Of a stretch of DNA of 64,000 bases, positions 2,506 to 24,395 are shown one piece after another. Positions within the stretch are counted from its first letter, which is position 1; each line of letters begins with the position of its first letter. The notes beneath the pieces are model-generated. The model was not told the origin of the DNA. It did no database searches and worked only from the letters and a program-made list of their open reading frames with translations. The position numbers were made by a program, and so were the translations under genes. This DNA comes from a virus (Duplodnaviria; Caudoviricetes). Location of the stretch: IMG/VR virus record IMGVR_UViG_3300028172_000069. One strand, written 5' to 3'.

Positions 2506-2841
2506 ATGGCCGATATCACCAAAGCCAAGACCTTCGCAGTGATCGACGAACTTGGGATCGACCCGTTGCGTGACAAGTCCTTTGACGCGATCATGGGCAT
2601 CACCAACTACAAGTTCCACGTCATCGCTCCTGAGGAGGAGCACAACATGCCACTCGTTGCCTACAATGAGTACATGAATGAGGAATACTGGAGAGTCCTC
2701 ATGATTTTCAATGGAATTGCCGATATGTTCGCGCTGAAGGCGGGCAACAGGATACGAATCCCAGCGCTCGCCCTCATTACCACCGCGCTGAACAACGTGC
2801 TAACCGAGCAGCCTTCGGGTTCTGCCACAGTGAGTATCTGA
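2506..2841 (+). CDS. Baseplate wedge/LysM-like protein (T4 gp53 / P2 gpX-like)
   Basis: PLVAYNEY..EEYWRVLMIFNGIAD.FALKAGNRIRIP motif; AAGGAG RBS; position between tube initiator and hub. Confidence 0.62.
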   Translation: MADITKAKTFAVIDELGIDPLRDKSFDAIMGITNYKFHVIAPEEEHNMPLVAYNEYMNEEYWRVLMIFNGIADMFALKAGNRIRIPALALITTALNNVLTEQPSGSATVSI

Positions 2842-2843
2842 CA

Positions 2844-5354
2844 ATGGAAGCAACGCTAGACGTCCAGAACATTGCGTATGCGACCCTCGACATTGAGGGT
2901 TCGCGTGTGCCACCCACGATGAACTTCGTGGACTCTATCATGCTGCAGGAGGGATTTGCAATTGCGATCCCTGTCCTGCAACTGATCCTTAACGACCAAC
3001 GTGGCACGCTCAGTGCGGACATGAACATTCAAGACGGGACACTGGTGACGATCAAACTCGCCAAGACCCGCGAGAACGTGAAGACCCGCAAGTTCCGTAT
3101 CTGGGGTTTCCGCAAGGAGACTACAGCAGCAGGACCCAAGCTGATCGTGACGTGCATCCTCGACGTTCCCAAGTGGAGCGCGGGTGTCTTCACTGAGTCG
3201 ATTCGTGGATCGTCTAGCTCTGTGATCCAACAGATGGCGAGTCGTGCTGGTCTCAAGTTCGATGGGCCTGCTGGCACTGACGACGTGCAGACGTGGCTCA
3301 ATGTCAACAAGACCCGCAGCGCTTTCTGCGAAGACGTGGCAATGCGCGGCTACGCCTCTGGCCAGTCGTGCATGTACCGCCTGCTCAACCTCGACGCCGA
3401 GGTGCGCTACAAGGACCTGTTCGACGTCCTGAAGAACGAACCCAAGTGGAGCTTCCTCCAGAACACGCCAGAGGGTAGTGCGAAAGCCACACCTGTTGTG
3501 ATTCGTGAGACGCAGGACGGCAGCTCCTCGGGCTTCGCCACTCACATGATGAACTACGGGCAGAAGCAATACGAGCACAGCCTGAACGTTGCTGGGCAGT
3601 TGTCCACGCTGACGCTCGACGCGCCTCTGTTCGGTGCTGCACTCCCAATCAACGAGGACGTGCGTGGGCAGATCGCTGATCGCGGAGCCAAGGTGAACTA
3701 CACTGGCTTCGATACTGGCACCGAGCCTGCGCCAGCGTCTAACCTCCACATGTTCTACGAGAAGGCGTTCTATCAAAACTTCCGTTACCTGGGCTTGCTC
3801 AGTGAGCGGATCAACTTGCTCTCGGATGAATACACTGAGGTCAAGACCTTCGACTGCTGCGAGTATCAGCACTCCGACCAGGACAACCACGAGTTCAAGC
3901 CCTCGAAAGCTCTCGGTGGTAAGTGGCTGATCGGTGGCAAGACCATGTGGATCAAAGCTGGTCACAAGTACAGCGAAATCTACTACCTGTACCGTCCCGC
4001 TGTCATGGAGACTGGTGCAAGCTCCGCCGCTGGCAGTCCGAAGTCAGGCAGCGAGCAGAACGCGAAGGCGAACAACGGTCCAATCGACATTGCAGCCGCA
4101 CAAGCCGATGCAGGTCCAACTGCACAGCAAGCAGCCGCAGTTGACTCGACCACAACAGTATCGAACACGGCAGCCAGCGCGACTAAAGCAGCGCCAGCCG
4201 CAACAGGTGCAACCAACACGCTGAACGCCTTGAAGTCCTACGGTGCGAGCAACCCACTCGTACCGAGCACGCCAATCGGGGCGAATGGGCTTACGACTCC
4301 GCAGCTAGCCCAACAGGATTCGCTGCGCAACGCCGTTTCCCAGTTCAAGTCGTCCTCGGGTCCGCTGCGCGATCAGCTTGTCACCACAGGTAGCGGTACA
4401 AGCGCACTGGGCTCGCTCACTGGCTACAAGGCTCTGGTCAAGTACCCAGCCGATATCATCAAGGTGTTGGCGAATGGGCAGACCGATCCTCGCTATATTG
4501 CCCGTGAGATTGACCGTGCACGGAACGATAGCTCGTACCTGAAGAACAGCGCCATCCAACGTCTGACTCGCGCAGGTTCAGACATTACTGGCGTGCGCTT
4601 GCACAACATCGTCTCCGCAGCTACTGGTAACCGCGTGAATACGCAGGGCATCATTGGTGACGTGGTAGGCGGTGGCTTCTGGGGCAAAGACTTGCGCGAA
4701 GCTGGCATCACGCCTAGCCAGATCAAGCTCCCGATCCCAGACGTGCTCAGCGAAATCAATGACGCAACTGGCAAGCTCGGTGGTACGTTCCTGCGCAACG
4801 CGACAGGCATCGGCCTGACCACTGACAACGTCCTGATCAACCCTTACCAGACTGCTCGCAACATCGAGAAGTGGAGTAAGGAAACCAACCCTGAACGCCT
4901 GCTGGTTGAACAAGGTGCACGCGCCTACATCAGCACGTTCGGACACGTCAGCCCGTCAGAGGCAGCTACCACCATGACTGATGTTGGTAAGCTGGCAGCT
5001 GAGGTTGCCCTGATGTACAGCCGCAACGAAGTAATCGCGGATGGTCATCTGACTGACAACCAACAACGCAGCCTGTTGAAAGACACCCTGTTTACCTTCG
5101 GCGATCCGACGATCGTACCAGTCGTTGACTCGGTTGATCGCATCGTCAAGTACGGGGAATACCACGACGTAACATCCAGCAAGCAATTCGTGACCTGGGC
5201 CGACTACTATTCGATGGGTGCCAAGCTTGGCAATGCTGTCGAGAAGTGGGACTTCCCGTTCACGTTCCCTGGAGAAACGATCACCGCGGGAGAGGTGACA
5301 AACGGCAACGCCACTACGTTCGATGAGGACACCAAGAGATGGATGACAAGCTAA
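2844..5354 (+). CDS. Baseplate hub-like protein (gp27/gpD-like N-terminal ~385 aa) with Ala/Ser/Thr linker and long C-terminal extension
   Basis: 836 aa; synteny after the LysM gene; beta-rich N-half, low-complexity linker, unassigned C-half. Confidence 0.5.
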   Translation: MEATLDVQNIAYATLDIEGSRVPPTMNFVDSIMLQEGFAIAIPVLQLILNDQRGTLSADMNIQDGTLVTIKLAKTRENVKTRKFRIWGFRKETTAAGPKLIVTCILDVPKWSAGVFTESIRGSSSSVIQQMASRAGLKFDGPAGTDDVQTWLNVNKTRSAFCEDVAMRGYASGQSCMYRLLNLDAEVRYKDLFDVLKNEPKWSFLQNTPEGSAKATPVVIRETQDGSSSGFATHMMNYGQKQYEHSLNVAGQLSTLTLDAPLFGAALPINEDVRGQIADRGAKVNYTGFDTGTEPAPASNLHMFYEKAFYQNFRYLGLLSERINLLSDEYTEVKTFDCCEYQHSDQDNHEFKPSKALGGKWLIGGKTMWIKAGHKYSEIYYLYRPAVMETGASSAAGSPKSGSEQNAKANNGPIDIAAAQADAGPTAQQAAAVDSTTTVSNTAASATKAAPAATGATNTLNALKSYGASNPLVPSTPIGANGLTTPQLAQQDSLRNAVSQFKSSSGPLRDQLVTTGSGTSALGSLTGYKALVKYPADIIKVLANGQTDPRYIAREIDRARNDSSYLKNSAIQRLTRAGSDITGVRLHNIVSAATGNRVNTQGIIGDVVGGGFWGKDLREAGITPSQIKLPIPDVLSEINDATGKLGGTFLRNATGIGLTTDNVLINPYQTARNIEKWSKETNPERLLVEQGARAYISTFGHVSPSEAATTMTDVGKLAAEVALMYSRNEVIADGHLTDNQQRSLLKDTLFTFGDPTIVPVVDSVDRIVKYGEYHDVTSSKQFVTWADYYSMGAKLGNAVEKWDFPFTFPGETITAGEVTNGNATTFDEDTKRWMTS

Positions 5355-5584
5355 CCCGCGAATACCTGTTGGGTCTCATCACCAAGACCTCGTTCCAGTA
5401 TCGTGGCACCACCACGATCTGCACGCTGGACATTGATGGTTTCCCTGTGGCAGGCGAGAGTCACTGCGTCTTCCGTGACCAGTACAACAAGCAAGTTGGG
5501 GAGAAGGTGAGCTACGAAAATGCGCTCAAGCAGCTACGGCGGTTTGAAGAATACGCCCAACGCAAAACTGTGAAAGCGGATTGA
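5339..5584 (+). CDS. N4 Gp49/Sf6 gp66 family protein (candidate nucleotide-signal sponge)
   Basis: TTTICTLDIDGFPVAGESHCV..QYNKQVGEKVSYENALKQL..FEEY matches the recalled Phage_gp49_66 pattern. Confidence 0.62.
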   Translation: MDDKLTREYLLGLITKTSFQYRGTTTICTLDIDGFPVAGESHCVFRDQYNKQVGEKVSYENALKQLRRFEEYAQRKTVKAD

Positions 5585-13214: not shown

Positions 13215-14093
13215 ATGAACGCGCGTCAAGCATTCATCACTAAACTCGGCAACGAACCATTTGAAGTCATGGTGAAGTCGATCCTGCACGGCTATAAGCA
13301 CTCCAAGCAGTACGAGGTGCTGATCCTGAGCATCACGTCTGCTGCCGCACGCGCTTTCGTACAGAGCGTATTGCGTGGTCCAGTCCCAGATTCGGTGCGC
13401 TGTGTAGGTCTCGATACCATCTTCGACACAACGCCGGAGACTCCAGCGGGCTTTATTTTCCTGATGCCTGAGCTTGCGTATACGGCACAAGGTAGTATCG
13501 GTTGCATCGACAAGTATCTGCGCAACCTCAACCGCCGAGTACAGATTGTCAGCGTCAATGAGGTTGTCTACTCGCTGCATCGGGCGATGTACGATAACTG
13601 GCTGAAAACCAAGTACAAGGTGGACGACCTGTCGCGCATCGTCCCGACTCCAGAGTCGCGGGTGCTGCACTTCACCCGTGAGCACTTTGACCGCTACATA
13701 TACAATGGCGGTGACGCATACCGCGAGTTTCCAGTGATCGACGCCGACGTTGTAGTGCTCGGCTATGACCTGCATCACTTGTCTGGCCAAGACATTGGCT
13801 ACCTCGTGTACAAACTCACCGACGACTCGGACACTGGCAACAAGGCCATGGTGCATATGGACCCCTTGCTGCTGGAGACATACTTCGAGTATGAGCGCTG
13901 GCTCGTCAATAACGGCGGCATGGAGTCAGCGATGAAGATGAACGCTACAGTTGATCCAGTGCGCGAAGTGCTCCGGCCGATGGACCCGAACGGCTACACT
14001 GTCTGGCGCGAAGACAAACCGGTGGCGCTGCCGTACTACGACAAGCAGTGGCATCTGGTGACACCGCCGGCCAAGCGCGGCAAGCGCAAGTAA
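13215..14093 (+). CDS. Hypothetical protein
   Basis: 292 aa; start at ATG 13215 (GAGGT RBS). Confidence 0.7.
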   Translation: MNARQAFITKLGNEPFEVMVKSILHGYKHSKQYEVLILSITSAAARAFVQSVLRGPVPDSVRCVGLDTIFDTTPETPAGFIFLMPELAYTAQGSIGCIDKYLRNLNRRVQIVSVNEVVYSLHRAMYDNWLKTKYKVDDLSRIVPTPESRVLHFTREHFDRYIYNGGDAYREFPVIDADVVVLGYDLHHLSGQDIGYLVYKLTDDSDTGNKAMVHMDPLLLETYFEYERWLVNNGGMESAMKMNATVDPVREVLRPMDPNGYTVWREDKPVALPYYDKQWHLVTPPAKRGKRK

Positions 14094-14105
14094 CACACGT
14101 CAGAG

Positions 14106-14129
14106 AGGCGGCCTTCGGGTCGCCTTTTT
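14106..14129 (+). terminator. Intrinsic terminator
   Basis: AGGCGGCC-TTCG-GGTCGCCT followed by TTTT. Confidence 0.8.
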
Positions 14130-14167
14130 CGTTTCTGTAAAGTCACTGTATCAACACGGTACTGACT

Positions 14168-14755
14168 ATGAACATATTCGCCACTGACCCAAGACCCATG
14201 GTAGCGGCCGCCCATCACTGTGACGTCCATGTAATCAAGATGATCCTTGAGACGGCGCAGTTGCTCTCGGCCGCACACGTCTTCTGCGACGGCAAGCAAG
14301 TAGCGTACAAGATGACCCACCAGCATCACCCGTGTGCCGTCTGGATACGCGAGAGTAAGTCGAACTACCGCTGGGCTTTCGACCTACTGGTCTGCCTGTG
14401 CGCAGAGTACACCTACCGCTTCGGTAAACGACACAAGACCCAAGATCATCTGATCGCTTTGGGTCACGTGCCTGACAACATTCCAGAAGACGATTTGACG
14501 GCCTTCGCAATGGCCATGCCTGACGAATTCCGCAGCAACAATCCGCACAAAAGCTATAAGCGCTACCTGCGTGCGAAGCTGGAGTCGTGGACGTTACGCG
14601 ACAAACCCATGCGCACGTCGTTCACCTATCGCGAAGTCCCCAAGCACCTGCTCACGGTGAGCACCCGAATCTTCCCGTGTATCCATCTAGGAGTTTTCCA
14701 TGAATCCGCTGCCAAGCACCAACCCGCTCGCCACGGTGTTGTCGTACCCTACTAA
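14168..14755 (+). CDS. Pyrimidine-dimer DNA glycosylase/endonuclease V-like protein
   Basis: MNIF...HCDVHVIKMILETAQLLS, THQHHPCAVW, EYTYRFGKRHK motifs of the DenV-like family. Confidence 0.75.
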   Translation: MNIFATDPRPMVAAAHHCDVHVIKMILETAQLLSAAHVFCDGKQVAYKMTHQHHPCAVWIRESKSNYRWAFDLLVCLCAEYTYRFGKRHKTQDHLIALGHVPDNIPEDDLTAFAMAMPDEFRSNNPHKSYKRYLRAKLESWTLRDKPMRTSFTYREVPKHLLTVSTRIFPCIHLGVFHESAAKHQPARHGVVVPY

Positions 14756-15455
14756 CACACAACTGGCGATGAACAAGGCCCACTTCGATCAGTTGTTGCG
14801 CGGCTACGGCCTGACAGACGTTTGGAACTGGATCGAAGAAAACAACATCGGTGTAGTGAACCCGTACCACAACACGCAGCACATGATGACCATTGCGCTG
14901 AATGGCTTCCGCATCTACCAGACCGAGCTGCTGCTTACTGGCGAGACGCAAGAACTCTACGGTCATATCAAGGTTCTGGTTGCAGGTATGCTGCACGACT
15001 TCAACCACAGCGGTGGTGAACATGCCGACGACGAGAACATCGAGAACGCTATCCACGACGGCCTCAACAAGATTGCGGGCACGCTTGATGCCAAGTTCGG
15101 CGAAGGGTTCAGTGACGAAGTGGAGCAACTGATCCGCTGTACCGAGTACCCGTTTGTGCGCATGCCGCACTCGCTTGCGGCCAAAGCACTACGCGACGCT
15201 GACCTGCTCCAGTCCATTGAACCCAACGGCATCACGCTGATCCTCGAAGGCCTGCGCTCTGAAATGCAGGTGCGCTTTGGTAAGCAGATCAGTGTGCAGG
15301 AAATGTACGAGGGCCAAGTCAAGTTCCTCGAGGCCGCCGAGCTGTTTACGCAAACAGGTCAAGCGCTCTGGGACGCATCCAAACACCACATGATCGAAGC
15401 GTGCCGCTGCTACGCCGAGTATCGCACTGGCAAACAACAGGAAGAACAAGCGTGA
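14700..15455 (+). CDS. HD-domain phosphohydrolase, class I cyclic-nucleotide PDE-like
   Basis: NPYHNTQH, AGMLHDFNHSG and RDADL motifs; GGAG RBS. Confidence 0.7.
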   Translation: MNPLPSTNPLATVLSYPTNTQLAMNKAHFDQLLRGYGLTDVWNWIEENNIGVVNPYHNTQHMMTIALNGFRIYQTELLLTGETQELYGHIKVLVAGMLHDFNHSGGEHADDENIENAIHDGLNKIAGTLDAKFGEGFSDEVEQLIRCTEYPFVRMPHSLAAKALRDADLLQSIEPNGITLILEGLRSEMQVRFGKQISVQEMYEGQVKFLEAAELFTQTGQALWDASKHHMIEACRCYAEYRTGKQQEEQA

Positions 15456-15880
15456 ACCAACAGGCCATTCTCAAGAAGTCCAAAACTTTCATCCTGCAAG
15501 CTCAGTTCGTGGAGCAACTTGCAGCATTGATCGAAGACGAACAGACCCTCATCCTTCAAGGTGAGGGTATCAAAATGGGTCCACTGCATTCTCGCGTTAT
15601 CTTCGGCCAAGTGCATCGCCGTAACTCTCGGGTGCGAGCACAGCCTGTATGGGTATTGCATGAAGGTCAGCCGATTGAGTTGGTGGACTACAAGGTTTCA
15701 TTCCTGCAGGCCATGTACACACCACACGACAGCCGCGTGGAGCAACAGATCAGCGTGATTATCCACAGCGCCGTGCTGTTCTCGCCTGAAACACAGGAAG
15801 CATATCCTGTGAGCATCCGTTTCCGCTACAACAACCACAACCCGCTCGACTTCACCAAAGCCTACATCACTTTCCTCTGA
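15452..15880 (+). CDS. Hypothetical protein
   Basis: GTG start overlapping the previous TGA. Confidence 0.6.
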   Translation: MNQQAILKKSKTFILQAQFVEQLAALIEDEQTLILQGEGIKMGPLHSRVIFGQVHRRNSRVRAQPVWVLHEGQPIELVDYKVSFLQAMYTPHDSRVEQQISVIIHSAVLFSPETQEAYPVSIRFRYNNHNPLDFTKAYITFL

Positions 15881-15887
15881 GGTGACC

Positions 15888-16598
15888 ATGAAGAATCTCT
15901 GGAATCGACTGTTCGGCGGTAAGCGTAAGCCAGAACCTGCAGAAGCTGCAACCCTGACAGGCAAAGAGAAAGAAAACTTTCTGCACCTGTTCATTGTGGA
16001 TGAACTGCTCAAGTACACAGGTAAGAGCGTTCGGGTGCGCAACAACGAAGCCCACGTCGAGTGCCCATACCACGCCAGTGGAACTACACCGACACTGTCG
16101 GTTGCGTTGTCCATGGGTGTAGGTCGCAAGCAGGGTATGTTCTACTGCTTTGCCTGTAACGAGCACGGCAACTGGAACAAGCTCGCACAGAAGGCAGGAC
16201 TTGCACCACTGCCCGTTGAACCTGATGACCCGCCAGAGTTGACACCTGTATTCCAAGGGTCTCTGGGGCGTCAGTACAATCGCGGCCAGCACATTAGCCG
16301 CGCGCATCGTCCAGGTCACACGCCAGCAGCGCAGGTGCACTACTTCGACGTGCAAGACCCCGCTGCTTGGGATCGCAGCTCACAGAGCCGCCAGGATAAC
16401 AGCAGCTCCACGCTCGCCAACATCGCGCTCATGGGTGCGGCACTGTCCGACAACGACACGCACCGCGAAAGCTGCGCAACACCAAGCACGACTACTCACG
16501 GTGAGCCAACGCGCAGCTATGCGCCTGACCCTACACCGAGCACTACCTACGACAGCCCATCGTCTACGGACTCAGGTAGTCCAGGCGGTTGCGACTGA
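15888..16598 (+). CDS. CHC2 (primase-type) zinc-finger protein with disordered Ser/Thr/Pro tail
   Basis: CPYH..TPTLSV...FYCFACNEHG motif; GAGGTG RBS. Confidence 0.7.
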   Translation: MKNLWNRLFGGKRKPEPAEAATLTGKEKENFLHLFIVDELLKYTGKSVRVRNNEAHVECPYHASGTTPTLSVALSMGVGRKQGMFYCFACNEHGNWNKLAQKAGLAPLPVEPDDPPELTPVFQGSLGRQYNRGQHISRAHRPGHTPAAQVHYFDVQDPAAWDRSSQSRQDNSSSTLANIALMGAALSDNDTHRESCATPSTTTHGEPTRSYAPDPTPSTTYDSPSSTDSGSPGGCD

Positions 16599-17251
16599 TG
16601 TTCTACACGGGCATTGGTAGCCGCGAAACTCCCAACCGCGTGTGTATGCTAATGTCCCGGTTTGCGCAGCTTCAATGGCGCAAGCCACGTTCTGGTGGGG
16701 CTATCCAAGCTGACGAATCTCAAGAGGTCGTCCCACTTGAACTCTACCTGCCGCGTCGTGGTTGGCGTGGTAAGGAAGGCATCTGGCAGTACACGCATGA
16801 GCAACTCCTCTTCGCTGACACCATCTGGAAGGAGGCGTTCCCATCTGACAAAGCTGTGGCAACTTGGACCCGTGATTTCTTCCGGCGCAACGTCTGGCAG
16901 ATCATGGGTCTTTGCGCATCTGTAAAGGAAGCTATATTCAGCGATTTTGTAATCTGCTGGACACCAGATGGTGCATTGACGATTCAAGACTACCAGCTAG
17001 GCGTCACCGGTGGTACTGGCATCGCAATCAACATCGCTTCAATCTACGGTGTACCCGTATACAACCTACAACGCCCAGATCACTTCCGGAAAGTCCTGAG
17101 CTGGTGCGTGCGAATGGAGCAAAAGCATGGACTCGTCTTTGAAGAAGCATCCCGTAGTTTTATCCGCGCAGCAACAGGCGAATACCTTGTTGCCGCTGAG
17201 CCTGAGCGCAGAGGAAGAGGACACCTTCCAATCTTGGCTCTATACGTTTAA
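16598..17251 (+). CDS. SLOG (DprA/Smf-like) nucleotide-binding protein
   Basis: YTGIGSRETP, RSGGA.QAD, FVICWTPDG and GGTGIAINIA motifs. Confidence 0.7.
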   Translation: MFYTGIGSRETPNRVCMLMSRFAQLQWRKPRSGGAIQADESQEVVPLELYLPRRGWRGKEGIWQYTHEQLLFADTIWKEAFPSDKAVATWTRDFFRRNVWQIMGLCASVKEAIFSDFVICWTPDGALTIQDYQLGVTGGTGIAINIASIYGVPVYNLQRPDHFRKVLSWCVRMEQKHGLVFEEASRSFIRAATGEYLVAAEPERRGRGHLPILALYV

Positions 17252-17402
17252 GGACGTCGCTCGCAAGACCATCGCCAATGTGGACGAAGTCGCTGAGGCG
17301 CACTGGCGTATGCTGTATGTCTGCACTGCACCCAAGGGTGCGCAAGAGGTGTACGACGAAATGTTTGCCCACGCTGGCAAGTGCTATCTAGAGGTGTGCT
17401 GA
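17187..17402 (+). CDS. Hypothetical protein
   Basis: Fills the gap; start uncertain (TTG 17187 assumed). Confidence 0.45.
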   Translation: MLPLSLSAEEEDTFQSWLYTFKDVARKTIANVDEVAEAHWRMLYVCTAPKGAQEVYDEMFAHAGKCYLEVC

Positions 17403-17965
17403 TGACTTTCCATATCGACTTCTCCAACTTCCCAATCGCCATTCGTCCGCCAAGCGACATGGTGAAAGTCAACTGCACGAAAGGGCCGCTGCTTGAAACG
17501 CCAGACGGAGCAATACACGCAGACGATCTGGTCAAGCAAATCTCCAAGAACCTGGATGCCAAGCTCACCATCACCGAGTTCGAGCGCCATCACATGGACA
17601 GTACGACCAAGAAGTTCTTTGACTCCTGGGTGAAGCCACAAGCTGCTGTGCCAGTTGAGAACTACGCGCTGCCTGTGTTCGACTCGTATGGCTTCCTGCA
17701 CTTCTCGCCAAAGCGCCCTGCTGATCCAAAGCGCAAGTACGGCGTGCAGGCGATAGTACGCGGCAACCTGTTCGAGGGGCGCAAGAACTTCCGTAGCCAT
17801 CGCAAAGCACGCGAGTGGGTACGCAAGCAACTCTCCTGTCAGATGTGGCCGTCGAGCACACAAGACAGCGGCTTGGCTAGCGGCATGGACCCAGTGACCA
17901 TGACGATCAGCTTCGACTTTACTGGCCCGCTCGACTCCAGCCATCTGAGCAAGGTGATGGTATGA
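17402..17965 (+). CDS. Hypothetical protein
   Basis: GAGGTG RBS; TGATG coupling. Confidence 0.65.
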   Translation: MTFHIDFSNFPIAIRPPSDMVKVNCTKGPLLETPDGAIHADDLVKQISKNLDAKLTITEFERHHMDSTTKKFFDSWVKPQAAVPVENYALPVFDSYGFLHFSPKRPADPKRKYGVQAIVRGNLFEGRKNFRSHRKAREWVRKQLSCQMWPSSTQDSGLASGMDPVTMTISFDFTGPLDSSHLSKVMV

Positions 17966-18243
17966 CCCCAGAAGATCAGTGTGCTGCCCTCGCCGCAGAT
18001 GAAGACGAACTGGCAAAGCCGTTGTCCTACGCTGTCGAACAACGCATCCGCTTCATCGACTTCCTGTTCGCTCATTACGGGTACGTCCGTCGCGAGTTCC
18101 TCATGGACTACTTCGGCCTGAGCATCGCGTCGGCGTCTCTGGACATTCAGCGCTACATCCGAATGACCGAGGACAATGTGTTCTACAACGCCAGTGCCAA
18201 GCGGTACGAGTCCACAAAAGCGTTCAAGCGCCTGTATCCCTGA
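17962..18243 (+). CDS. Stand-alone CapW/BrxR-type winged-helix DNA-binding domain (no WYL domain)
   Basis: RIRFIDFL...G.V.R..LMDYFGLS...ASLDIQRY....N..Y.AS.KRY....F..L matches the N-terminal wHTH of WYL regulators. Confidence 0.75.
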   Translation: MTPEDQCAALAADEDELAKPLSYAVEQRIRFIDFLFAHYGYVRREFLMDYFGLSIASASLDIQRYIRMTEDNVFYNASAKRYESTKAFKRLYP

Positions 18244-18252
18244 GGAGCCGAC

Positions 18253-18531
18253 ATGGCAAACAAAGCATTTCCCGGCTCCAAGCTGTTTGAGTTGAAGGCG
18301 ACTCACGGCTTGCCTCTGGACGTTGCAGTCGACCGCATCGTTAACACTGAACGCATGGTGATCGACTGGCAGGGCTTCATCGACCAAGCGCGTGCTCAAG
18401 GTTGGTACGACTTCCAGACGCTCGACGTGGCTGAGCAAGCCCTGACTGACGCTGACGTACCACGTGACTACCGCGACGCTGTGGTGTTGCGCATGAAAGC
18501 CTACGTCATGGAGAAGCGCCATGCCACGTGA
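18253..18531 (+). CDS. Mini-protein resembling an alanyl-tRNA synthetase helical segment
   Basis: GSKLFELKATHGLPLDV...E..VIDWQGF vs AlaRS G..AF.LYDTYGFP.DL....E....D..GF. Confidence 0.6.
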   Translation: MANKAFPGSKLFELKATHGLPLDVAVDRIVNTERMVIDWQGFIDQARAQGWYDFQTLDVAEQALTDADVPRDYRDAVVLRMKAYVMEKRHAT

Positions 18532-18739
18532 TCGCCTGTACCCACACCCAGGGTTCATCGTCTACAAGAACCGCGTAGAGGAGAACCCGCACACGTTCGA
18601 GCCCGAGCTGACCCGTGACATTGTTACTGAGGTTCATGACGAAAATCAGGCCAAGGAAATCGTAGCGCGGGAACGTGCCGCCGATCCCGATGCTGGTGAG
18701 AACTGGATTTATTATGAACCGGGAACCATCTACGACTAA
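18521..18739 (+). CDS. Hypothetical protein
   Basis: 72 aa; GGAG RBS. Confidence 0.6.
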   Translation: MPRDRLYPHPGFIVYKNRVEENPHTFEPELTRDIVTEVHDENQAKEIVARERAADPDAGENWIYYEPGTIYD

Positions 18740-18986
18740 GCGCCGCAAGCGTAAGCCCAAGGTGCGCGAGCCAATTCCGCAGAGCGTTTTCTACTACCCA
18801 GACATTGGTGAGTACGGCCGCACATCGGTGACGTCCTACCACGAAGTGAAATACTTCATCGACTGGGGACCCAACCCGAAGTGTACGGTGCACGGCCGCT
18901 TTCTTCCCGAGCATGACCTCTGGACGCGGTTAGACGACGACATGGACCAACAGGAAGACGAAGATGACCGAGACGAAGAAGATTAA
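18714..18986 (+). CDS. Hypothetical protein (basic N-terminus, acidic C-terminus)
   Basis: Start assumed at ATG 18714. Confidence 0.55.
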   Translation: MNREPSTTKRRKRKPKVREPIPQSVFYYPDIGEYGRTSVTSYHEVKYFIDWGPNPKCTVHGRFLPEHDLWTRLDDDMDQQEDEDDRDEED

Positions 18987-19989
18987 TCTGTGGGTGCCCG
19001 GTATGGGTACCATCTGGGAGCACCACAAGAACGGTATCGAGTACGAGGTGTACGACGTTACCAACGAAGATGCCGACGAGGAGCGTACGGACTATCGCAC
19101 CACCGTATCCTACATCGGACCTAATGGGAAGAAGTGGAGCAAGTCGCTTGAGCGCTTCCACGAGACCATGCTGTTCACTGGTAAGCATGCCGAGTACCCG
19201 ACCAAGGTTGTAGTCGGTCGTCCGGGTGTCAACCCTGGTCACTTCACGGTGCCGAAGTTCGAGGTTGTCTTCGATCCGAAGTTCGAGCCCGACGGTCCTG
19301 GTCTGTTCTACTACGTCAACTACAAAGAGTACAACGGCAAGACCACGATGCTCGAAGAAATCACCCAGCGCATTCGGGTGATGCTGCATGGCGTACCTCA
19401 GGAGCCGATCGCAGGCACGCGCACTGGCGACAACTTCAATGCCATGCAGGAGTACACAACGTTCGGGCATGTGTCCCAGTGCGAGCGCGACGAAATTGAC
19501 GCTCGTGGTCTGTGCTACATCGGGCAAGTGGGTAGCCCGTACGGTGTCGTGTGCTGGGGCCATCGCACGGCCAACGACATTCCGGTTCACGAAGCGATGT
19601 TGTACCACAAACTCCTGAAGGTGCTCGACAAGTACAAGGGCGAAATTGTTGACGACCTCCTAGTCCACAAGCTGTACGACGATTTCTACCAAGTGCTGCT
19701 ACGTGCCGTTCAGACACGACTGGTTTACGCACGTCAAGCGGGTGACGCTGCCCATATGTTGCAAATCATCGGACCTTCTGGCGATGACGACGCACGTATC
19801 ATCATGTTCCGCATTCCGTTCATCATGCACCCGCAGCCACGTCTAATGGAAGTGAGGATCGGCACCAACACGATCACCGCGTCGCTTGACGGTCGCATGG
19901 CACAAGCTCTGGGTGCGCTGTACCCGAACGATAACCTTGTGGGTGTAGTTCCACAGCCGAAGAAATCCATTGGCATGGAGGCAGAGTAA
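18964..19989 (+). CDS. Hypothetical protein with N-terminal DUF1653-like domain
   Basis: GTIWEHHKNGIEYEV......TVSY....GKKWSKSLERF pattern. Confidence 0.55.
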   Translation: MTETKKINLWVPGMGTIWEHHKNGIEYEVYDVTNEDADEERTDYRTTVSYIGPNGKKWSKSLERFHETMLFTGKHAEYPTKVVVGRPGVNPGHFTVPKFEVVFDPKFEPDGPGLFYYVNYKEYNGKTTMLEEITQRIRVMLHGVPQEPIAGTRTGDNFNAMQEYTTFGHVSQCERDEIDARGLCYIGQVGSPYGVVCWGHRTANDIPVHEAMLYHKLLKVLDKYKGEIVDDLLVHKLYDDFYQVLLRAVQTRLVYARQAGDAAHMLQIIGPSGDDDARIIMFRIPFIMHPQPRLMEVRIGTNTITASLDGRMAQALGALYPNDNLVGVVPQPKKSIGMEAE

Positions 19990-20435
19990 TGCAGCAAGGA
20001 AACCTGAACGTCACCATTCCGCAGGTCACGGTGCTGATCGACGAACAGGTCGACACCTTCTACCTACAGCCACTGGATGCCATCACGTTCCGCGAGATTG
20101 AGATTGCGCTGAACGCCAACATCGAGAAAGCGTTCGCCTACGGCTTTACGGTCACGGCTAATCCAGCGCAGGCTGCCGATGGCATCGTGATGATCGAGTA
20201 CACGCATCAGGGTACCCAGCACACTTACCGCTGCGAAGCCAAGTCGTTGAAGCTGCGTGCCGAGGAAGTGCTGCGGGCCAAGATCAACCTGGCCGCTGCT
20301 GCTGTGGAAGCTGCCCTCGAAGCGCTCAAGTCGTCACCGTCTGACGGCCGCCTGATCAACGTCGGGCGCACGCAAATCCAAAGCGGATTCATGGCACTGC
20401 GCCGCTCCATCGAACCGAACCCGGAGGCAATATGA
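19989..20435 (+). CDS. Acb2/Vs.4-like nucleotide-sponge domain fused to an N-terminal ~85 aa domain
   Basis: C-terminal DGRLINVGRTQIQSGFMALRRSIEP aligns with Acb2 [26 protein letters not shown] (recalled). Confidence 0.68.
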   Translation: MQQGNLNVTIPQVTVLIDEQVDTFYLQPLDAITFREIEIALNANIEKAFAYGFTVTANPAQAADGIVMIEYTHQGTQHTYRCEAKSLKLRAEEVLRAKINLAAAAVEAALEALKSSPSDGRLINVGRTQIQSGFMALRRSIEPNPEAI

Positions 20436-21052
20436 AGACGCTGGCCGAGTTCACCTCGCGCAATATCATCAAGGACAAGACTGCTGTAGAAGGCGGTTGG
20501 GTCAACAACTCGAAAGACAGCGGCGGTGAGACCAATCATGGCATCACGGCTGCGCTGGCGAATGACTATCGCACCAAGCTGGTATCCATGTTCAAGTGGG
20601 ACGGCACGATGAAGAACCTGAGCATCGACATGGCCTACTGGCTGTACGAGACTCACTTCTGGAATCGCCTGTATGCTGACGATCTGCTCAAGCGTCATCC
20701 TCTGTTTGCCGACAAGCTGTTCGACATGGCGATCAACATGGGTGTGACCACTGCCGGTTCGTATTTCCAGCAGGTGCTCAATGCCAACAACAACCAGGGT
20801 ACGCTGTACGCCGACCTGAAAGTCGATGGCTGGATCGGCCCAACCACGCTCAAAGCGCTCGACGCCTACATCAGCAAACGCGGCGTTGAAGGCATCAACC
20901 GTGCGCTGTGTGCGCTACTCGCTGAGCAAGGTCACCACTACCTGCAACTCGTCCAGAAGCGTGCTAAGGACGAGGAGTTCTACTACGGCTGGGCTGGTCG
21001 TGTTAGCCGTGACATGGGCATCTACATCAACGTGCTGGGAATCAAGGCATGA
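20432..21052 (+). CDS. Endolysin, glycoside hydrolase family 108 with PG-binding-3 domain
   Basis: EGGWVNNSKDSGGETNHGIT catalytic motif; LFDMAINMG, VDGWIGPTTL and FYYGW motifs. Confidence 0.9.
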   Translation: MKTLAEFTSRNIIKDKTAVEGGWVNNSKDSGGETNHGITAALANDYRTKLVSMFKWDGTMKNLSIDMAYWLYETHFWNRLYADDLLKRHPLFADKLFDMAINMGVTTAGSYFQQVLNANNNQGTLYADLKVDGWIGPTTLKALDAYISKRGVEGINRALCALLAEQGHHYLQLVQKRAKDEEFYYGWAGRVSRDMGIYINVLGIKA

Positions 21053-21504
21053 ACAGACCAAAGAAAAGTACCACGTGGAAAACCCCAGAGGGTGTGATGC
21101 TCGTGGTTGTTGGTATCATGGAGCACACCGACGTATTCCAGCCAGAGCACAACATCACCTTCGTGAACGTGCTGTATCTCAACGCGCCTGAAGACTTCCG
21201 CGCATCTGAGCTGATTTCCTTGCGCACGTTCAACGAGCACATGACCCAGGTTGGTTTGATGCTCGACGAAGGTAAGCGCCCGCGTCACCCATGGGAAGTC
21301 TATCTGGCGGATCGCGCAGATGGTTGCAAGGGTCACTTCGCCATCGCACGCTGGCACCCCAACGGGTATCAAGAAGTCTGGAACCTGCGCAAGCACACGT
21401 GGGGCGCATTCAGTGACGACGTCCTGACTCTGGAAGAAGCTGAGAAGATGCTCCAGTCAATCAGCTTCCATCCAATGACGCCCAGCATTCGGAGCCCGGT
21501 ATGA
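21049..21504 (+). CDS. Hypothetical protein
   Basis: 151 aa; ATGA overlap. Confidence 0.65.
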   Translation: MNRPKKSTTWKTPEGVMLVVVGIMEHTDVFQPEHNITFVNVLYLNAPEDFRASELISLRTFNEHMTQVGLMLDEGKRPRHPWEVYLADRADGCKGHFAIARWHPNGYQEVWNLRKHTWGAFSDDVLTLEEAEKMLQSISFHPMTPSIRSPV

Positions 21505-22334
21505 ATAATTTCCCAGAAGACACGGTGAAGTACCGTATCCAGATCATCTGCAACACCTTCTTCGGCCGCCAAGTGTCGCCGGATTTGGCGCAAGTGATTC
21601 AAGACACCCTCAATCAAGACGTACCGCCGTACTGCGCTGAGGACTTCAAGGTCCAGATCAAGATGCGCGTCGGTGTATACATTCGTGTCGATTGCTCCGT
21701 GCGCGGTGAAGAGCACTCGTATGACATTTACCCAGAGCAGCAGGACGAAATGCCTCACCTGCCGCCGCTGTCGCGTGAAGAATTAGCTGAGAGCGCGCGG
21801 CGCTACGAGCTGGCGCATCCACGCGTTCCAACCAAGCGCATCTTGATCGTTGCCATGAGCGATAACTTCGTCATCGGCAAAGAAGGTAAGCTGCCGTGGC
21901 ATATCCCGAACGACCTGAAGTTCTTCAAAGACCAGACGACTGGTCACCCACTGGTTGTCGGCCGCAAGACGTATCAGAGCATGCCTGACTTCGTGTGGAA
22001 GACGCGCACGCCGCACATCTTGACCCGCGACCCGCATAACTTCGAAGGTCCAAACTGTCCGTACCACGCTAGCGACTCACTGGGCTCGCTCGTACACTGC
22101 GCGGGTGAGAACTTCCGTACGGGCAAGGTGTTCATTGCTGGTGGTGCCGAAGTCTATCGCCAAGCACTTGACCAAGACCTGGTTGACGAAATGTTGGTCA
22201 CCCACGTTAAGGGTGTCTGGGCCGGCGACACCTTCTTCGAGTTCGTTCCTGGCTTCGGTCCAGGTGAAGTCGTGCTGGAAGACCCAGAGTTCACCGTCTC
22301 GCGCTACACGCGCTATGTCAAATTGGAGGCGTGA
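21501..22334 (+). CDS. folA: Dihydrofolate reductase with ~110 aa N-terminal extra domain
   Basis: IVAMSDNFVIGKEGKLPWHIPNDLKFFK..T.GHPLVVGRKTYQSM, FIAGGAEVY and GDTFF motifs. Confidence 0.9.
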   Translation: MNNFPEDTVKYRIQIICNTFFGRQVSPDLAQVIQDTLNQDVPPYCAEDFKVQIKMRVGVYIRVDCSVRGEEHSYDIYPEQQDEMPHLPPLSREELAESARRYELAHPRVPTKRILIVAMSDNFVIGKEGKLPWHIPNDLKFFKDQTTGHPLVVGRKTYQSMPDFVWKTRTPHILTRDPHNFEGPNCPYHASDSLGSLVHCAGENFRTGKVFIAGGAEVYRQALDQDLVDEMLVTHVKGVWAGDTFFEFVPGFGPGEVVLEDPEFTVSRYTRYVKLEA

Positions 22335-22810
22335 TGAAACGCGCACGGTACTACACAACCATTCAGGGCAAGCGTGCCACACGACGCATCAAGTGGTTCA
22401 ATCCGAAAGGCATCATCCACGAGAACGGCAAGCAGTACGTCGCCGCATTTGTGCTTGCAACTCTCGGCGAGACGGGCTTGAAGCTGCGCGCTGTCACGTC
22501 TCAGCTGGGCATCGACGGTCGCGGTAAGTGGGTGATTCCAGGCGTCATGGACTGTCCTGAGCCCATGTACACAGCAGCGTACAGTGTCGGCCTCGAAGTG
22601 GGTCGCATGACGCAGGGTGCCGAATACCTCATCAACCAGATGAACGAGCAATTAGAACGAGAGCGTGAGAACATGTGGCGTCCGCCTGTGGGTACACAGC
22701 GCGGTGTCCTGTCGGCGGAGCAAATCACGGCCGTCGAAGATCACGCCATTGAGCATCTGCCCATCAACCGCCTGAACCCGGGTGCAACTTTTCCAAAGCA
22801 GGGAGTCTAA
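22331..22810 (+). CDS. Hypothetical protein
   Basis: 159 aa; GGAGG RBS. Confidence 0.65.
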   Translation: MMKRARYYTTIQGKRATRRIKWFNPKGIIHENGKQYVAAFVLATLGETGLKLRAVTSQLGIDGRGKWVIPGVMDCPEPMYTAAYSVGLEVGRMTQGAEYLINQMNEQLERERENMWRPPVGTQRGVLSAEQITAVEDHAIEHLPINRLNPGATFPKQGV

Positions 22811-22830
22811 CCACAAACCAGAGGTAATCA

Positions 22831-23163
22831 ATGCGCAAATCAATCATGTTTGTTTACGAGGTGTTGGGTGACAGCACCGAGGTGTTCTTCATCCCGGACG
22901 CGGCGAAGCTGCCAAAGCCGGTGATTGACGCAATGAAGACGGCACGCAACACGGTGATGAATCGCGACGACTTGAGTGCACCTCAGACCGACGCGCACGA
23001 AATCATCACATCGGCGGTCAGCGAGGAATCGGCAGTCGAGTACATCGACGAGCCGTATAAAAAGTTTGTAGGTACGCTGCTGCCCTACAAAGTGCGTGGC
23101 TCCACCAGCGCGCTTAACGTGGGTGACAAACTATTCTACTTGCGCTGCGGTTTCGTGGCTTGA
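22831..23163 (+). CDS. Hypothetical protein
   Basis: 110 aa; GAGGT RBS. Confidence 0.7.
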   Translation: MRKSIMFVYEVLGDSTEVFFIPDAAKLPKPVIDAMKTARNTVMNRDDLSAPQTDAHEIITSAVSEESAVEYIDEPYKKFVGTLLPYKVRGSTSALNVGDKLFYLRCGFVA

Positions 23164-23168
23164 CTCAA

Positions 23169-23192
23169 AACAGGGTGCTTCGGCGCCCTGTT
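23169..23192 (+). terminator. Probable terminator hairpin
   Basis: AACAGGGTGC-TTCG-GCGCCCTGTT; weak U tract. Confidence 0.6.
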
Positions 23193-23243
23193 GTCGTTTC
23201 TGCGGTCTACGCTGTGCGCAGTCTACAGACCATGGTCGTTCGA

Positions 23244-23360
23244 TACCTGAACTATAAAAAGAACCATTAGAGGTGTTGACTACTGATTTCAGTAATGATA
23301 TACTGTCTGTGACTAGCCGAACCGAGCATGCCACATAGTGGTTACGACTTAGTTTAGGTT
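23244..23360 (+). promoter_or_regulatory. Promoter cassette A: sigma70 promoter, spacer operator and flanking inverted boxes
   Basis: -35 TTGACT 23276-81, 17 bp, -10 TATACT 23299-304; operator TACTGATTTCAGTA 23281-94; boxes 23244-66 and 23339-60. Confidence 0.85.
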
Positions 23361-23399
23361 ACACACTCAAACATGAATAGTTTACAGGATACCACGAAC

Positions 23400-24395
23400 A
23401 TGACCGCTACCAAGACCGTTGCCAAGAAAGCCACCGTTGCTAAAGCCGCCGCTCCTACCGTAGCCCGTAAAGTCACCCGCACCGCAACCACCGAGACCAA
23501 AGCCATGACCAAGCCTGCAAACAAAACCGCCGCCACCAAGACCGTTGCTGCCAAAGTCGTGAGCAAGAAGCCGGTCGTTGCCGCTGCTGCCAAGCCTGCT
23601 GTTAAAGCTCCGGCCAAGCGCACCAAGAAAGTTGCGCGCAAGCCGAAGGTCGTCAAGTACGCCAAGCGCGTGATCGACGTTGCAGCCTTCGCCACCAGCA
23701 AGCGCATTGTTAGCGACCTGCTGGTCACCAAGCTGACCGAAGCTGATGACCTGATCATCACTCGCGAAGGTCAACCTGAAGGCAAGAAGCTGGTAGGCAA
23801 AGCGCTGTGGGTTCAACTCGGCGAGAAGAAAGTCGAGAACTACGGCGTTGTGTCCGATGTGATCGTTTCCGTCGGCATTGACGGCAACAAGATTGTTTAC
23901 TTCCTCGAGGCCGTCTGCGGTGATACCACCTTCCCGCTGCACGCCATCGACAAGGTCGGTGCCAAGTTCATCGTTGACCTGAAAGCGACCATGCCTACTC
24001 GCGCCAACATCGAGCTGATCGGCGTGGACGAAATCATGGGCAGCAAGCGCCCAGGTCGTGCACCTGCAAACACCAACGCTGGCAAGCGCGCTGCTCGCGT
24101 AACCCGCGCTGCCCGCGCTGCCGCTGTCAAAGCCGAAGCTGCTGCCGAAAAGGCGCCTCTGGTTGTTGGCAAGGACGAAATGAAACCAGGTGCTTACACC
24201 AAGGGTGCGTCGATCATCATTGACCCGACCATCAAAGGCGACAAGATCGCCAAGGTGTTCATCAAGACCCTGGGCCGTGGCACCAAGAAAGACCCAGTGC
24301 GCCGTGTTCGCCACGTCCACACTGTCAAAGGTCAAATCTGCCCGCTGAACGAACTGCGTGCGCACCGTGGCGGCTTCAAAGCCATCGACCTGTAA
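23400..24395 (+). CDS. Hypothetical protein with histone-H1/AlgP-like Ala/Lys/Thr-rich N-terminus
   Basis: TKTVAKKATVAKAAAP...KPAVKAPAK; start at CGAAC-ATG 23400 (alternative 23373). Confidence 0.7.
   Translation: MTATKTVAKKATVAKAAAPTVARKVTRTATTETKAMTKPANKTAATKTVAAKVVSKKPVVAAAAKPAVKAPAKRTKKVARKPKVVKYAKRVIDVAAFATSKRIVSDLLVTKLTEADDLIITREGQPEGKKLVGKALWVQLGEKKVENYGVVSDVIVSVGIDGNKIVYFLEAVCGDTTFPLHAIDKVGAKFIVDLKATMPTRANIELIGVDEIMGSKRPGRAPANTNAGKRAARVTRAARAAAVKAEAAAEKAPLVVGKDEMKPGAYTKGASIIIDPTIKGDKIAKVFIKTLGRGTKKDPVRRVRHVHTVKGQICPLNELRAHRGGFKAIDL

Follow-up and report, generated by a model that had tools for sequence, protein, structure and literature searches.

Sponge proteins are the main route by which phages counter signaling by cyclic-oligonucleotide-based antiphage signaling systems (CBASS), Thoeris, and Pycsar. 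In the sponge Acb2, Arg67 and Thr74 contact the phosphates of cyclic trinucleotides, the R67A exchange abolishing binding of cyclic tri-adenylate (cA3) and T74A weakening it, and the dinucleotide pocket depends on stacking by Tyr11 and a salt bridge from Lys26 (PMC10312549); Pro90 takes part in a base contact (10.1101/2025.08.24.671296). Acb2 and the sponge Tad1 are both homo-hexamers built as trimers of dimers (D3). Dimers of Tad1 are four-helix bundles of head-to-tail hairpins (10.1101/2022.05.03.490397), and R88, T95, and Q98 of CmTad1 also form inter-dimer contacts of the hexamer (10.1101/2023.11.15.567273). In Acb2_43, two added short strands switch the ligand to 3' cyclic ADP-ribose (3'cADPR) (Hadary et al., 10.1101/2025.08.24.671296), and in the sponge-sponge fusions Tad2-Acb4, Tad2-Sequestin, and Sequestin-Acb4, the previously unknown partner proved to be a sponge (10.1101/2025.07.12.664507). 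Here, a 64,000-nucleotide stretch (the window) of IMG/VR record IMGVR_UViG_3300028172_000069, which comes from a jumbo phage of soil that is a relative of Pseudomonas phage PaBG, was analyzed with respect to one gene, whose product we designate P0001. A preliminary description of this gene, made from the sequence alone, had proposed an Acb2-like sponge fused to an unfamiliar N-terminal domain, with a remodeled pocket. We consider it reasonably probable that P0001 is a lineage-specific two-domain sponge of the Acb2/Tad1 superfamily, predicted to lie on the Acb2 branch and to have kept the trinucleotide site.

Searches of billions of proteins, both word-indexed and exhaustive (HMMER), showed that the family of P0001 consists of only ten clusters at 90% identity. 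All members are 145-158 residues long and have an identical two-part build, identities within the family go down to 26%, and several members lie on contigs of 160-265 kb. The only member in a named phage is PaBG gp041 (YP_008433372.1, annotated as a 'hypothetical protein'), which is 32% identical to P0001 over the full length (BLASTP E 6e-22). Comparison with an 85%-identical orthologue in locus L014 gave a ratio of nonsynonymous to synonymous substitution rates (dN/dS) of 0.11 for the whole gene; residues 1-88 taken alone gave 0.12 and residues 89-148 gave 0.055. P0001 is a real gene with purifying selection on both halves, of which the C-terminal hairpin is the more strongly constrained. Its parts are arranged as follows:

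Positions 19989 to 20435, plus strand: P0001 coding sequence, 148 residues, exactly the 148-codon open reading frame (ORF) read from the window sequence; its ATG overlaps the upstream stop codon (TAATG), and its stop codon overlaps the endolysin start (ATGA, 20432-20435).
Positions 19989 to 20252, plus strand: N-terminal domain, residues 1-88, with predicted helices at 10-22 and 31-44, predicted strands at 51-56, 66-73, and 76-83, and invariant D30, L41, F53, V55, and G75.
Positions 20259 to 20330, plus strand: helix 1 of the predicted hairpin, residues 91-114, with no invariant residue and with N100 where Lys26 of Acb2 would fall.
Positions 20346 to 20405, plus strand: helix 2 of the predicted hairpin, residues 120-139, the most Acb2-like segment, with invariant R121, T128, Q131, F134, R138, and R139.

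Evidence for a relationship with Acb2 comes from the C-terminal part. Pfam family PF24729 (Acb2_Tad1_hairpin) matched residues 98-141 of P0001 (E 3.7e-5, 24.3 bits) and was matched by 8 of the 10 family members; in a six-frame search with the same profile, the P0001 gene scored 23.3 bits and PaBG gp041 scored 25.2. A full-length family profile run against all PDB sequences retrieved only Acb2 p26 of PaMx33 (8ixz/8h2j, E 8e-4), and a profile of the hairpin alone retrieved the same protein at E 7.3e-5, with the next best match at 0.12. Alignment with hhalign to a JBD67-type Acb2 alignment gave a probability of 85% (E 6e-6) over 23 columns only (residues 118-140). A scan of IMG/VR for the family motif found canonical short Acb2 genes at 1946-2257 of locus L007 and 2830-3090 of locus L009, both carrying the usual N terminus KGYR...EEIDAMNE(V/I)KE (KGYR...NEVK), and P0001 closely resembles the second helix of these proteins, with identities of 48% over 40 residues (BLASTP E 3e-9) and 61% over 23 residues. 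The ten best named neighbors in an ESM-feature search were all PF24729 clusters, at a score of only 0.80, which makes them a lead at most.

The similarity to Pseudomonas-phage Acb2 claimed in the preliminary description is thus beyond chance by the Pfam, PDB profile, hhalign, and BLASTP comparisons, and the Acb2 strings that it quoted match both the PDB alignment and the primers in PMC10312549. Its alignment of approximately 65 residues stands for approximately residues 103-141, from the last part of helix 1 through the turn and helix 2; the rest of the 65 shows no solid similarity. Alignment of helix 1 to Acb2 was without statistical support (hhalign skips it), and a MAFFT alignment of helix 1 that placed Acb2 G10-Y11 on G75-T76 was regarded as unreliable. 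Judged from sequence, the C-terminal hairpin of P0001 (approximately residues 91-141) is a genuine but distant homologue of Acb2. That the likeness is instead convergent or accidental, and P0001 an unrelated small helical phage protein, is a view that could draw on the Pfam match lying under the gathering score, on the alignment of only approximately 23-40 residues, and on helical hairpins being common and fold searches non-specific. However, each of several significant and mutually independent sequence comparisons points to Acb2 alone, and the invariant aligned residues are the functional ones; we regard this view as highly unlikely.

The pattern of conservation within the family is uneven. 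R121, T128, Q131, F134, R138, and R139 are invariant in all ten clusters, so that the strictly invariant polar residues (R121, T128, Q131, R138, and R139) cluster in the hairpin, and no invariant residue was found across the ten clusters between G75 and R121. The positions that bear on the trinucleotide site and the C terminus are these:

Positions 20349 to 20351, plus strand: Arg121 codon, the counterpart of Acb2 R67 (HMMER, 8h2j) and of CmTad1 R88.
Positions 20370 to 20381, plus strand: Thr128-Gln131 (T-x-x-Q), equivalent to Acb2 T74/Q77 and CmTad1 T95/Q98.
Positions 20406 to 20432, plus strand: C-terminal tail, residues 140-148 (S-x-E/x-P-x-P-E/D-A-I/Y), conserved, with P143 aligned to the C-terminal Pro of Acb2.

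HMMER aligns R121 with R67 of 8h2j, N124 with A70, V125 with I71, and T128 with T74. The Arg and Thr of the trinucleotide site are therefore kept, as had been read from the sequence at the outset, both are family-invariant, and the Arg-x6-Thr-x2-Gln motif is retained in the family without exception. The residues of the dinucleotide pocket are not. When the BLAST alignment to the L007 Acb2 is extended without gaps, Lys26 comes to lie on N100, where all members have D, E, or N, which agrees with the Lys-to-Asn change of the preliminary description. The pocket Tyr is lost as well: the Tyr80-Arg81 pair pointed out in the preliminary description sits in a predicted beta-strand, and Tyr80 is not conserved, 7 of the 10 members having V, I, or L in its place. 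On these alignments, the Acb2 dinucleotide pocket (Tyr11/Lys26) is without a conserved counterpart in the family. To call the pocket remodeled is a fair description, although helix 1 is not alignable with statistical support. The preliminary description had also counted glycocyclic ADP-ribose (gcADPR) among the ligands of Acb2, which is too broad, as this holds for some homologues only (10.1101/2025.08.24.671296) and PaMx33 Acb2 does not bind it (10.1101/2023.11.15.567273).

By hhalign and by alignment, the approximately 88 residues ahead of the hairpin have no counterpart in Acb2, as had been suspected. The sequence searches given below detected no homologue of them outside the family. The AlphaFold2 model of P0001 has a mean predicted local distance difference test (pLDDT) score of 79 and a predicted template modeling (pTM) score of 0.70, with the N-terminal domain at pLDDT 86-92, and the BFVD model of PaBG gp041, made independently, superposes with all of P0001 at a template modeling (TM) score of 0.73. 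In the AlphaFold2 model, residues 1-88 are confidently predicted to form a folded helix-helix-strand-strand-strand domain; with its own signature of selection (dN/dS 0.12), the N-terminal part is indeed a separate domain. Its polar conservation is limited to D30, E36, and N42.

Searches of Pfam, PHROGs, and NCBIfam produced nothing usable for the N-terminal domain, NCBIfam giving no match of any kind; matches to MalM (E 0.054) and phrog_717 (E 0.0016) were too weak to use. A PDB profile search with the domain found no relative, an ESM-Atlas feature search with residues 1-90 gave no usable match, and a six-frame search for a paralogue in the phage record and the complete PaBG genome returned only the gene itself. 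Exhaustive phmmer searching found no real relative of the domain outside the PaBG-lineage family. Giant repeat proteins (1707-4135 residues; E 1.7e-6 to 7.3e-5) that matched it were judged spurious; in the best of them, P0009, the domain aligned to an 'FTVTA-PA-AAD' strand-loop repeat, each match having approximately 30% identity over 40 residues and the score being a sum across 5-10 repeats. Since the domain was never seen alone or with another partner, in the exhaustive protein search and in the two genomes, it may have arisen as an elaboration within the lineage, comparable to the beta-sheet of Tad1. The preliminary picture of a fusion of two independent modules is not supported by this distribution, and the second activity that it suggested for the extra domain was pure conjecture.

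In structure libraries, the N-terminal domain resembles both the core of the gp25/GpW/sheath-initiator proteins and IraD, an anti-adaptor of the gp25 fold. An Atlas GPW_gp25 cluster superposed on the model at TM 0.54 and a root mean square deviation of 2.6 Å over 76 residues, in the range that the tool calls common, and baseplate wedge proteins in BFVD were also among the fold matches. The likeness is middling, and we take it as a description of the predicted fold and not as homology. It could nonetheless be read to mean that the hairpin is an oligomerization scaffold only, and that a multi-copy gp25/IraD-like domain binds a host or phage protein, such as a defense effector or regulator, with no nucleotide sponge involved; the precedent would be IraD, which binds RssB. 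The N-terminal domain is unique to the family, under purifying selection, and confidently folded, as such a role would lead one to expect. However, the gp25/IraD fold scores in the common range and has no sequence support, the invariant polar residues sit at Acb2/Tad1 ligand and hexamer positions in the hairpin and not in the N-terminal domain, and the hairpin is under the stronger constraint, so we consider a pure scaffold unlikely. As a separate observation, several small uncharacterized proteins of T4-like phages in BFVD (92-107 residues), among them a protein of Proteus phage Pm5461 and cd.3 from Escherichia phage VR7, match part of the P0001 model with a Foldseek probability of 0.97-0.99 and a TM score of approximately 0.52-0.55 by target.

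In the AlphaFold2 model, the hairpin consists of two long antiparallel helices (residues 91-114 and 120-139) joined by a short turn, and a hairpin-only model had a pLDDT of 86. Foldseek searches of the PDB with the full and hairpin-only models gave no match at E 0.001 or better, CbTad1 (8smd_A) appearing only at E 3 with a TM score of 0.41. A homodimer model scored 0.59 (median of three runs) versus 0.33 for the best control; in the calibration of the tool, 20 of 30 solved homo-pairs and 1 of 23 proteins solved as single chains attain this score, counts that hold only roughly here, the dimer model having used an alignment of our own. The three runs share at least 81% of contacts, with partner pLDDT of at least 75. 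The confident interface is confined to residues 91-141 and has two-fold symmetry (106-106, 130-130, and 102-102), and the modeled dimer takes the form of a head-to-tail four-helix bundle with no confident contact between N-terminal domains. R121, T128, Q131, and R138 are outside the listed interface, in which an unlisted residue is merely uncertain; the model is consistent with these residues being free for a further, three-fold interface.

Several of these features recall Tad1, and P0001 could be viewed as a very divergent Tad1 whose N-terminal domain corresponds to the beta-sheet of Tad1. Its main ligand would then be an ADP-ribose isomer made by a TIR (Toll/interleukin-1 receptor) protein, held between the N-terminal domain loops, R138/R139, the C-terminal tail, and the helix-helix turn of the partner. 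Tad1 has the same domain order (an N-terminal sheet domain, two long C-terminal helices, and a conserved tail), a similar size (142 residues in SBSphiJ7 Tad1), and a head-to-tail four-helix-bundle dimer like that of the P0001 model. In addition, the two invariant Arg residues late in helix 2 may be compared with R109/R113 of CbTad1, and T-x-x-Q is common to P0001 and CmTad1 (T95/Q98). Against this, the N-terminal domain of P0001 is predicted as two helices and three strands and not a beta1-beta4 sheet, and Tad1 sheets join by a beta4-beta4 seam, whereas no confident contact of this domain appears in the dimer model. Counted from the Thr, P0001 has its Arg pair at +10/+11 and CbTad1 at +12/+16, and the hairpin sequence is clearly nearest to Pseudomonas-phage Acb2. 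Tad1 chains were absent from the family-profile searches of the PDB at E values up to 10. Taken together, we find descent from Tad1 quite unlikely.

We favor an Acb2-branch sponge that would assemble through its hairpins. These would pair head to tail into a four-helix-bundle dimer, and three dimers would join via R121/T128/Q131 to give a hexamer whose three-fold axis carries two pockets. The Arg/Thr pockets on this axis would sequester cyclic trinucleotides, cA3 or cyclic AMP-AMP-GMP (cAAG), from the type III CBASS of Pseudomonas-like hosts; cyclic-trinucleotide CBASS is present in P. aeruginosa, in Pa278 and ATCC 27853 (PMC10312549). The vertices bind dinucleotides in Acb2 and gcADPR in Tad1. 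The N-terminal domain of P0001 occupies the chain position of the dinucleotide-binding N terminus of Acb2 and of the Tad1 sheet, and at the vertices this domain, the invariant R138/R139, and the conserved tail would replace the Acb2 pocket, which may have been abolished or may have given way to a new pocket for a different ligand. Ligand sequestration by P0001 is something we infer from its sequence. A bolder version would make the family a third architectural class, in which a new vertex pocket, formed by the N-terminal domain, R138/R139, and the longer tail, captures a signal that canonical Acb2 does not bind, possibly one unassigned to any sponge, and the Arg/Thr pocket still takes cyclic trinucleotides. 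We put this forward tentatively and regard it as doubtful.

A number of points weigh against a nucleotide sponge of the Acb2 branch. Searching with an Acb2 profile, as the preliminary description had suggested, gave a PF24729 match (E 3.7e-5) that is below the gathering score of 27, a score reached by no family member (hmmscan best, 24.3 bits); because all scores are under the Pfam threshold, no member would be annotated automatically. The significant similarity is limited to approximately 40 residues, and within them the hydrophobic contact A70 of Acb2 is replaced by Asn124. The oligomer model holds two copies only. Work on the Acb2 proteins of T4 and CHI14 showed that cA3 binding is not predictable from sequence alone, and the D61R exchange in T4 Acb2, which supplies the missing Arg, conferred no cA3 binding (PMC10312549), because helix geometry matters too. 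Finally, a Pfam scan of ten neighboring ORFs (14168-23163) at E 0.01 or better gave no support for a counter-defense operon, yielding only sub-threshold matches to a CHC2 zinc finger and a fragment of alanyl-tRNA synthetase.

In keeping with a sponge, the PaBG lineage carries other sponge families. In a six-frame search of the window, an Acb4-like ORF of 81 residues at 5339-5584 on the plus strand, situated just after an 836-residue ORF, scored 31.8 bits, over a cut-off of 27, against PF13876 (Phage_gp49_66), to which the Acb4 sponges belong. PaBG itself (NC_022096.1) has two Tad2-like (PF11195) genes, at 132113-132343 and 119832-120080, and one Acb4-like gene.

The IMG/VR record behind the window is a 137.7-kb fragment, estimated to be 52% complete, and shows 83.6% DNA identity to the Pseudomonas jumbo phage PaBG (Baikalvirus) over the endolysin region. 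P0001 is preceded by a 341-codon ORF and followed by a GH108/PG_binding_3 endolysin, and the TAATG and ATGA overlaps make it a link in a translationally coupled chain. One further signal belongs to the gene:

Positions 19977 to 19981, plus strand: Shine-Dalgarno sequence GGAGG, 7 nt before the P0001 ATG, read directly from the sequence.

The family gene is always located in a neighborhood of endolysin and dihydrofolate reductase (DHFR) genes. DHFR is directly downstream of it in PaBG and in loci L003, L004, L015, and L016; in the window and L014, the endolysin is directly downstream and DHFR is two genes on. In the window, the DHFR gene (21501-22334, plus strand) encodes 277 residues, with an N-terminal extension of approximately 110 residues that has no Pfam match and no similarity to PaBG gp043. 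Long DHFR proteins of 274-281 residues are found in L014, L003, and L004, and short ones of 173-182 residues in PaBG and L015/L016. PaBG gp043 (512 residues, phrog_4767) corresponds to two separate ORFs in the window, at 18964-19989 and 21049-21504, both on the plus strand, which flank the pair formed by P0001 and the endolysin; L014 shows the same split. The first of these ORFs (341 residues) aligns to residues 9-68 and 268-443 of gp043, and the second (151 residues) aligns to residues 170-247 at 50% identity.

Three genes upstream of P0001 lies a 93-residue ORF (17962-18243, plus strand), whose L014 orthologue (1961-2242) carries a precomputed Pfam assignment to PF26109 (WHD_BrxR); PF26109 was not listed for the window copy in the Pfam scan at E 0.01 or better. 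An element of approximately 30 nt at 14104-14141, at the upstream boundary of the operon, matches several other sites in the long phage contigs of the soil runs described next and is a dispersed repeat. All of window positions 19500-21100 is contained in 20 soil sequencing runs, 15 of them labeled as metatranscriptomic RNA-Seq. In four of these 15, examined over 13500-24000, the phage contigs reach up to 146-234 kb at flat depth, the word depth being 120-2600. This points either to high activity of the phage during the soil campaign or to carry-over of phage DNA into the RNA libraries, and with long contigs at flat depth, transcription cannot be told from such carry-over.

Among the papers searched, none joins PaBG with Acb2, and in the supplement of Hadary et al., as far as its text was searched, neither peptides of this family nor the name 'PaBG' occur (10.1101/2025.08.24.671296). 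Their large survey of how Acb2, Tad1, and Tad2 vary was built on clusters with at least 20 members (10.1101/2025.08.24.671296), a size that the P0001 family probably does not reach. The sponge type is already known, and elaborated and fused precedents exist; the two-domain build of this N-terminal domain with an Acb2 hairpin is new. In recent work, the ligand of the Acb2 hairpin was shown to be switched by small added elements. The P0001 family has kept the trinucleotide motif, discarded the dinucleotide pocket, and placed a new domain at the second-ligand site of Acb2 and Tad1, which makes it a cheap, defined test case for new specificity in hairpin sponges and a candidate anti-defense gene for PaBG-like jumbo phages. 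If P0001 binds nothing, the hairpin would be a case of reuse as a plain oligomerization module.

Among the known systems compared with P0001, proteins of the gp25/GpW baseplate wedge (sheath initiator) fold and Escherichia coli IraD (PDB 2IA7, 9F4B_AA, and 6OD1_B) have no sequence similarity to its N-terminal domain; P0001 has no baseplate context and no paralogue in the phage. Like the sponge-sponge fusions, it combines a known sponge module with a second domain in one chain. The partners in those fusions are also free-standing, whereas the N-terminal domain of P0001 is confined to its family and has no conserved positive residues.

With Tad1 (SBSphiJ7 Tad1; CbTad1, PDB 7UAV, 7UAW, and 8SMD; CmTad1), P0001 has in common its overall plan and a length of approximately 140-150 residues, an antiparallel-sheet N-terminal domain likewise standing ahead of two long helices and a conserved tail. 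Both also have the Arg...Thr-x-x-Q hexamer and trinucleotide motif and Arg late in helix 2. The predicted N-terminal domain of P0001 differs in its two extra helices, in having three strands and not four, and in the absence of a predicted sheet-sheet seam, and the gcADPR contacts of CbTad1 (H29, R57, F82, N92, R109, and R113) could not be placed on P0001 by alignment.

With Acb2 (PaMx33 gp26, PDB 8H2J, 8H2X, and 8IXZ; JBD67 gp34; T4 Vs.4), the two-helix hairpin is common to both, as is a motif over the turn and helix 2, (G/P)R-x5-G-x-T-x-x-Q-x-G-(F/M)-M-A-L-x-R, and P0001 keeps the Arg/Thr pair of the trinucleotide pocket and the tail Pro. Like Acb2, P0001 is predicted to self-associate via the hairpin and is encoded by a phage accessory gene in a Pseudomonas-phage lineage. 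However, P0001 has 148 residues and Acb2 is a single-domain protein of approximately 90-110; the N-terminal segment of Acb2 (Tyr11/Leu14 and Lys26) is absent or unconserved in P0001, which has an 88-residue alpha/beta domain instead. The tail of P0001 is five residues longer, its helix 1 has no conserved residue, and A70 is changed to Asn124. Acb2_43 and the other Thoeris-inhibiting Acb2 homologues provide the precedent for a hairpin whose added elements rebuild the vertex pocket and bring new specificity. Acb2_43 gains two short strands for this purpose; P0001 gains a whole domain of 88 residues.

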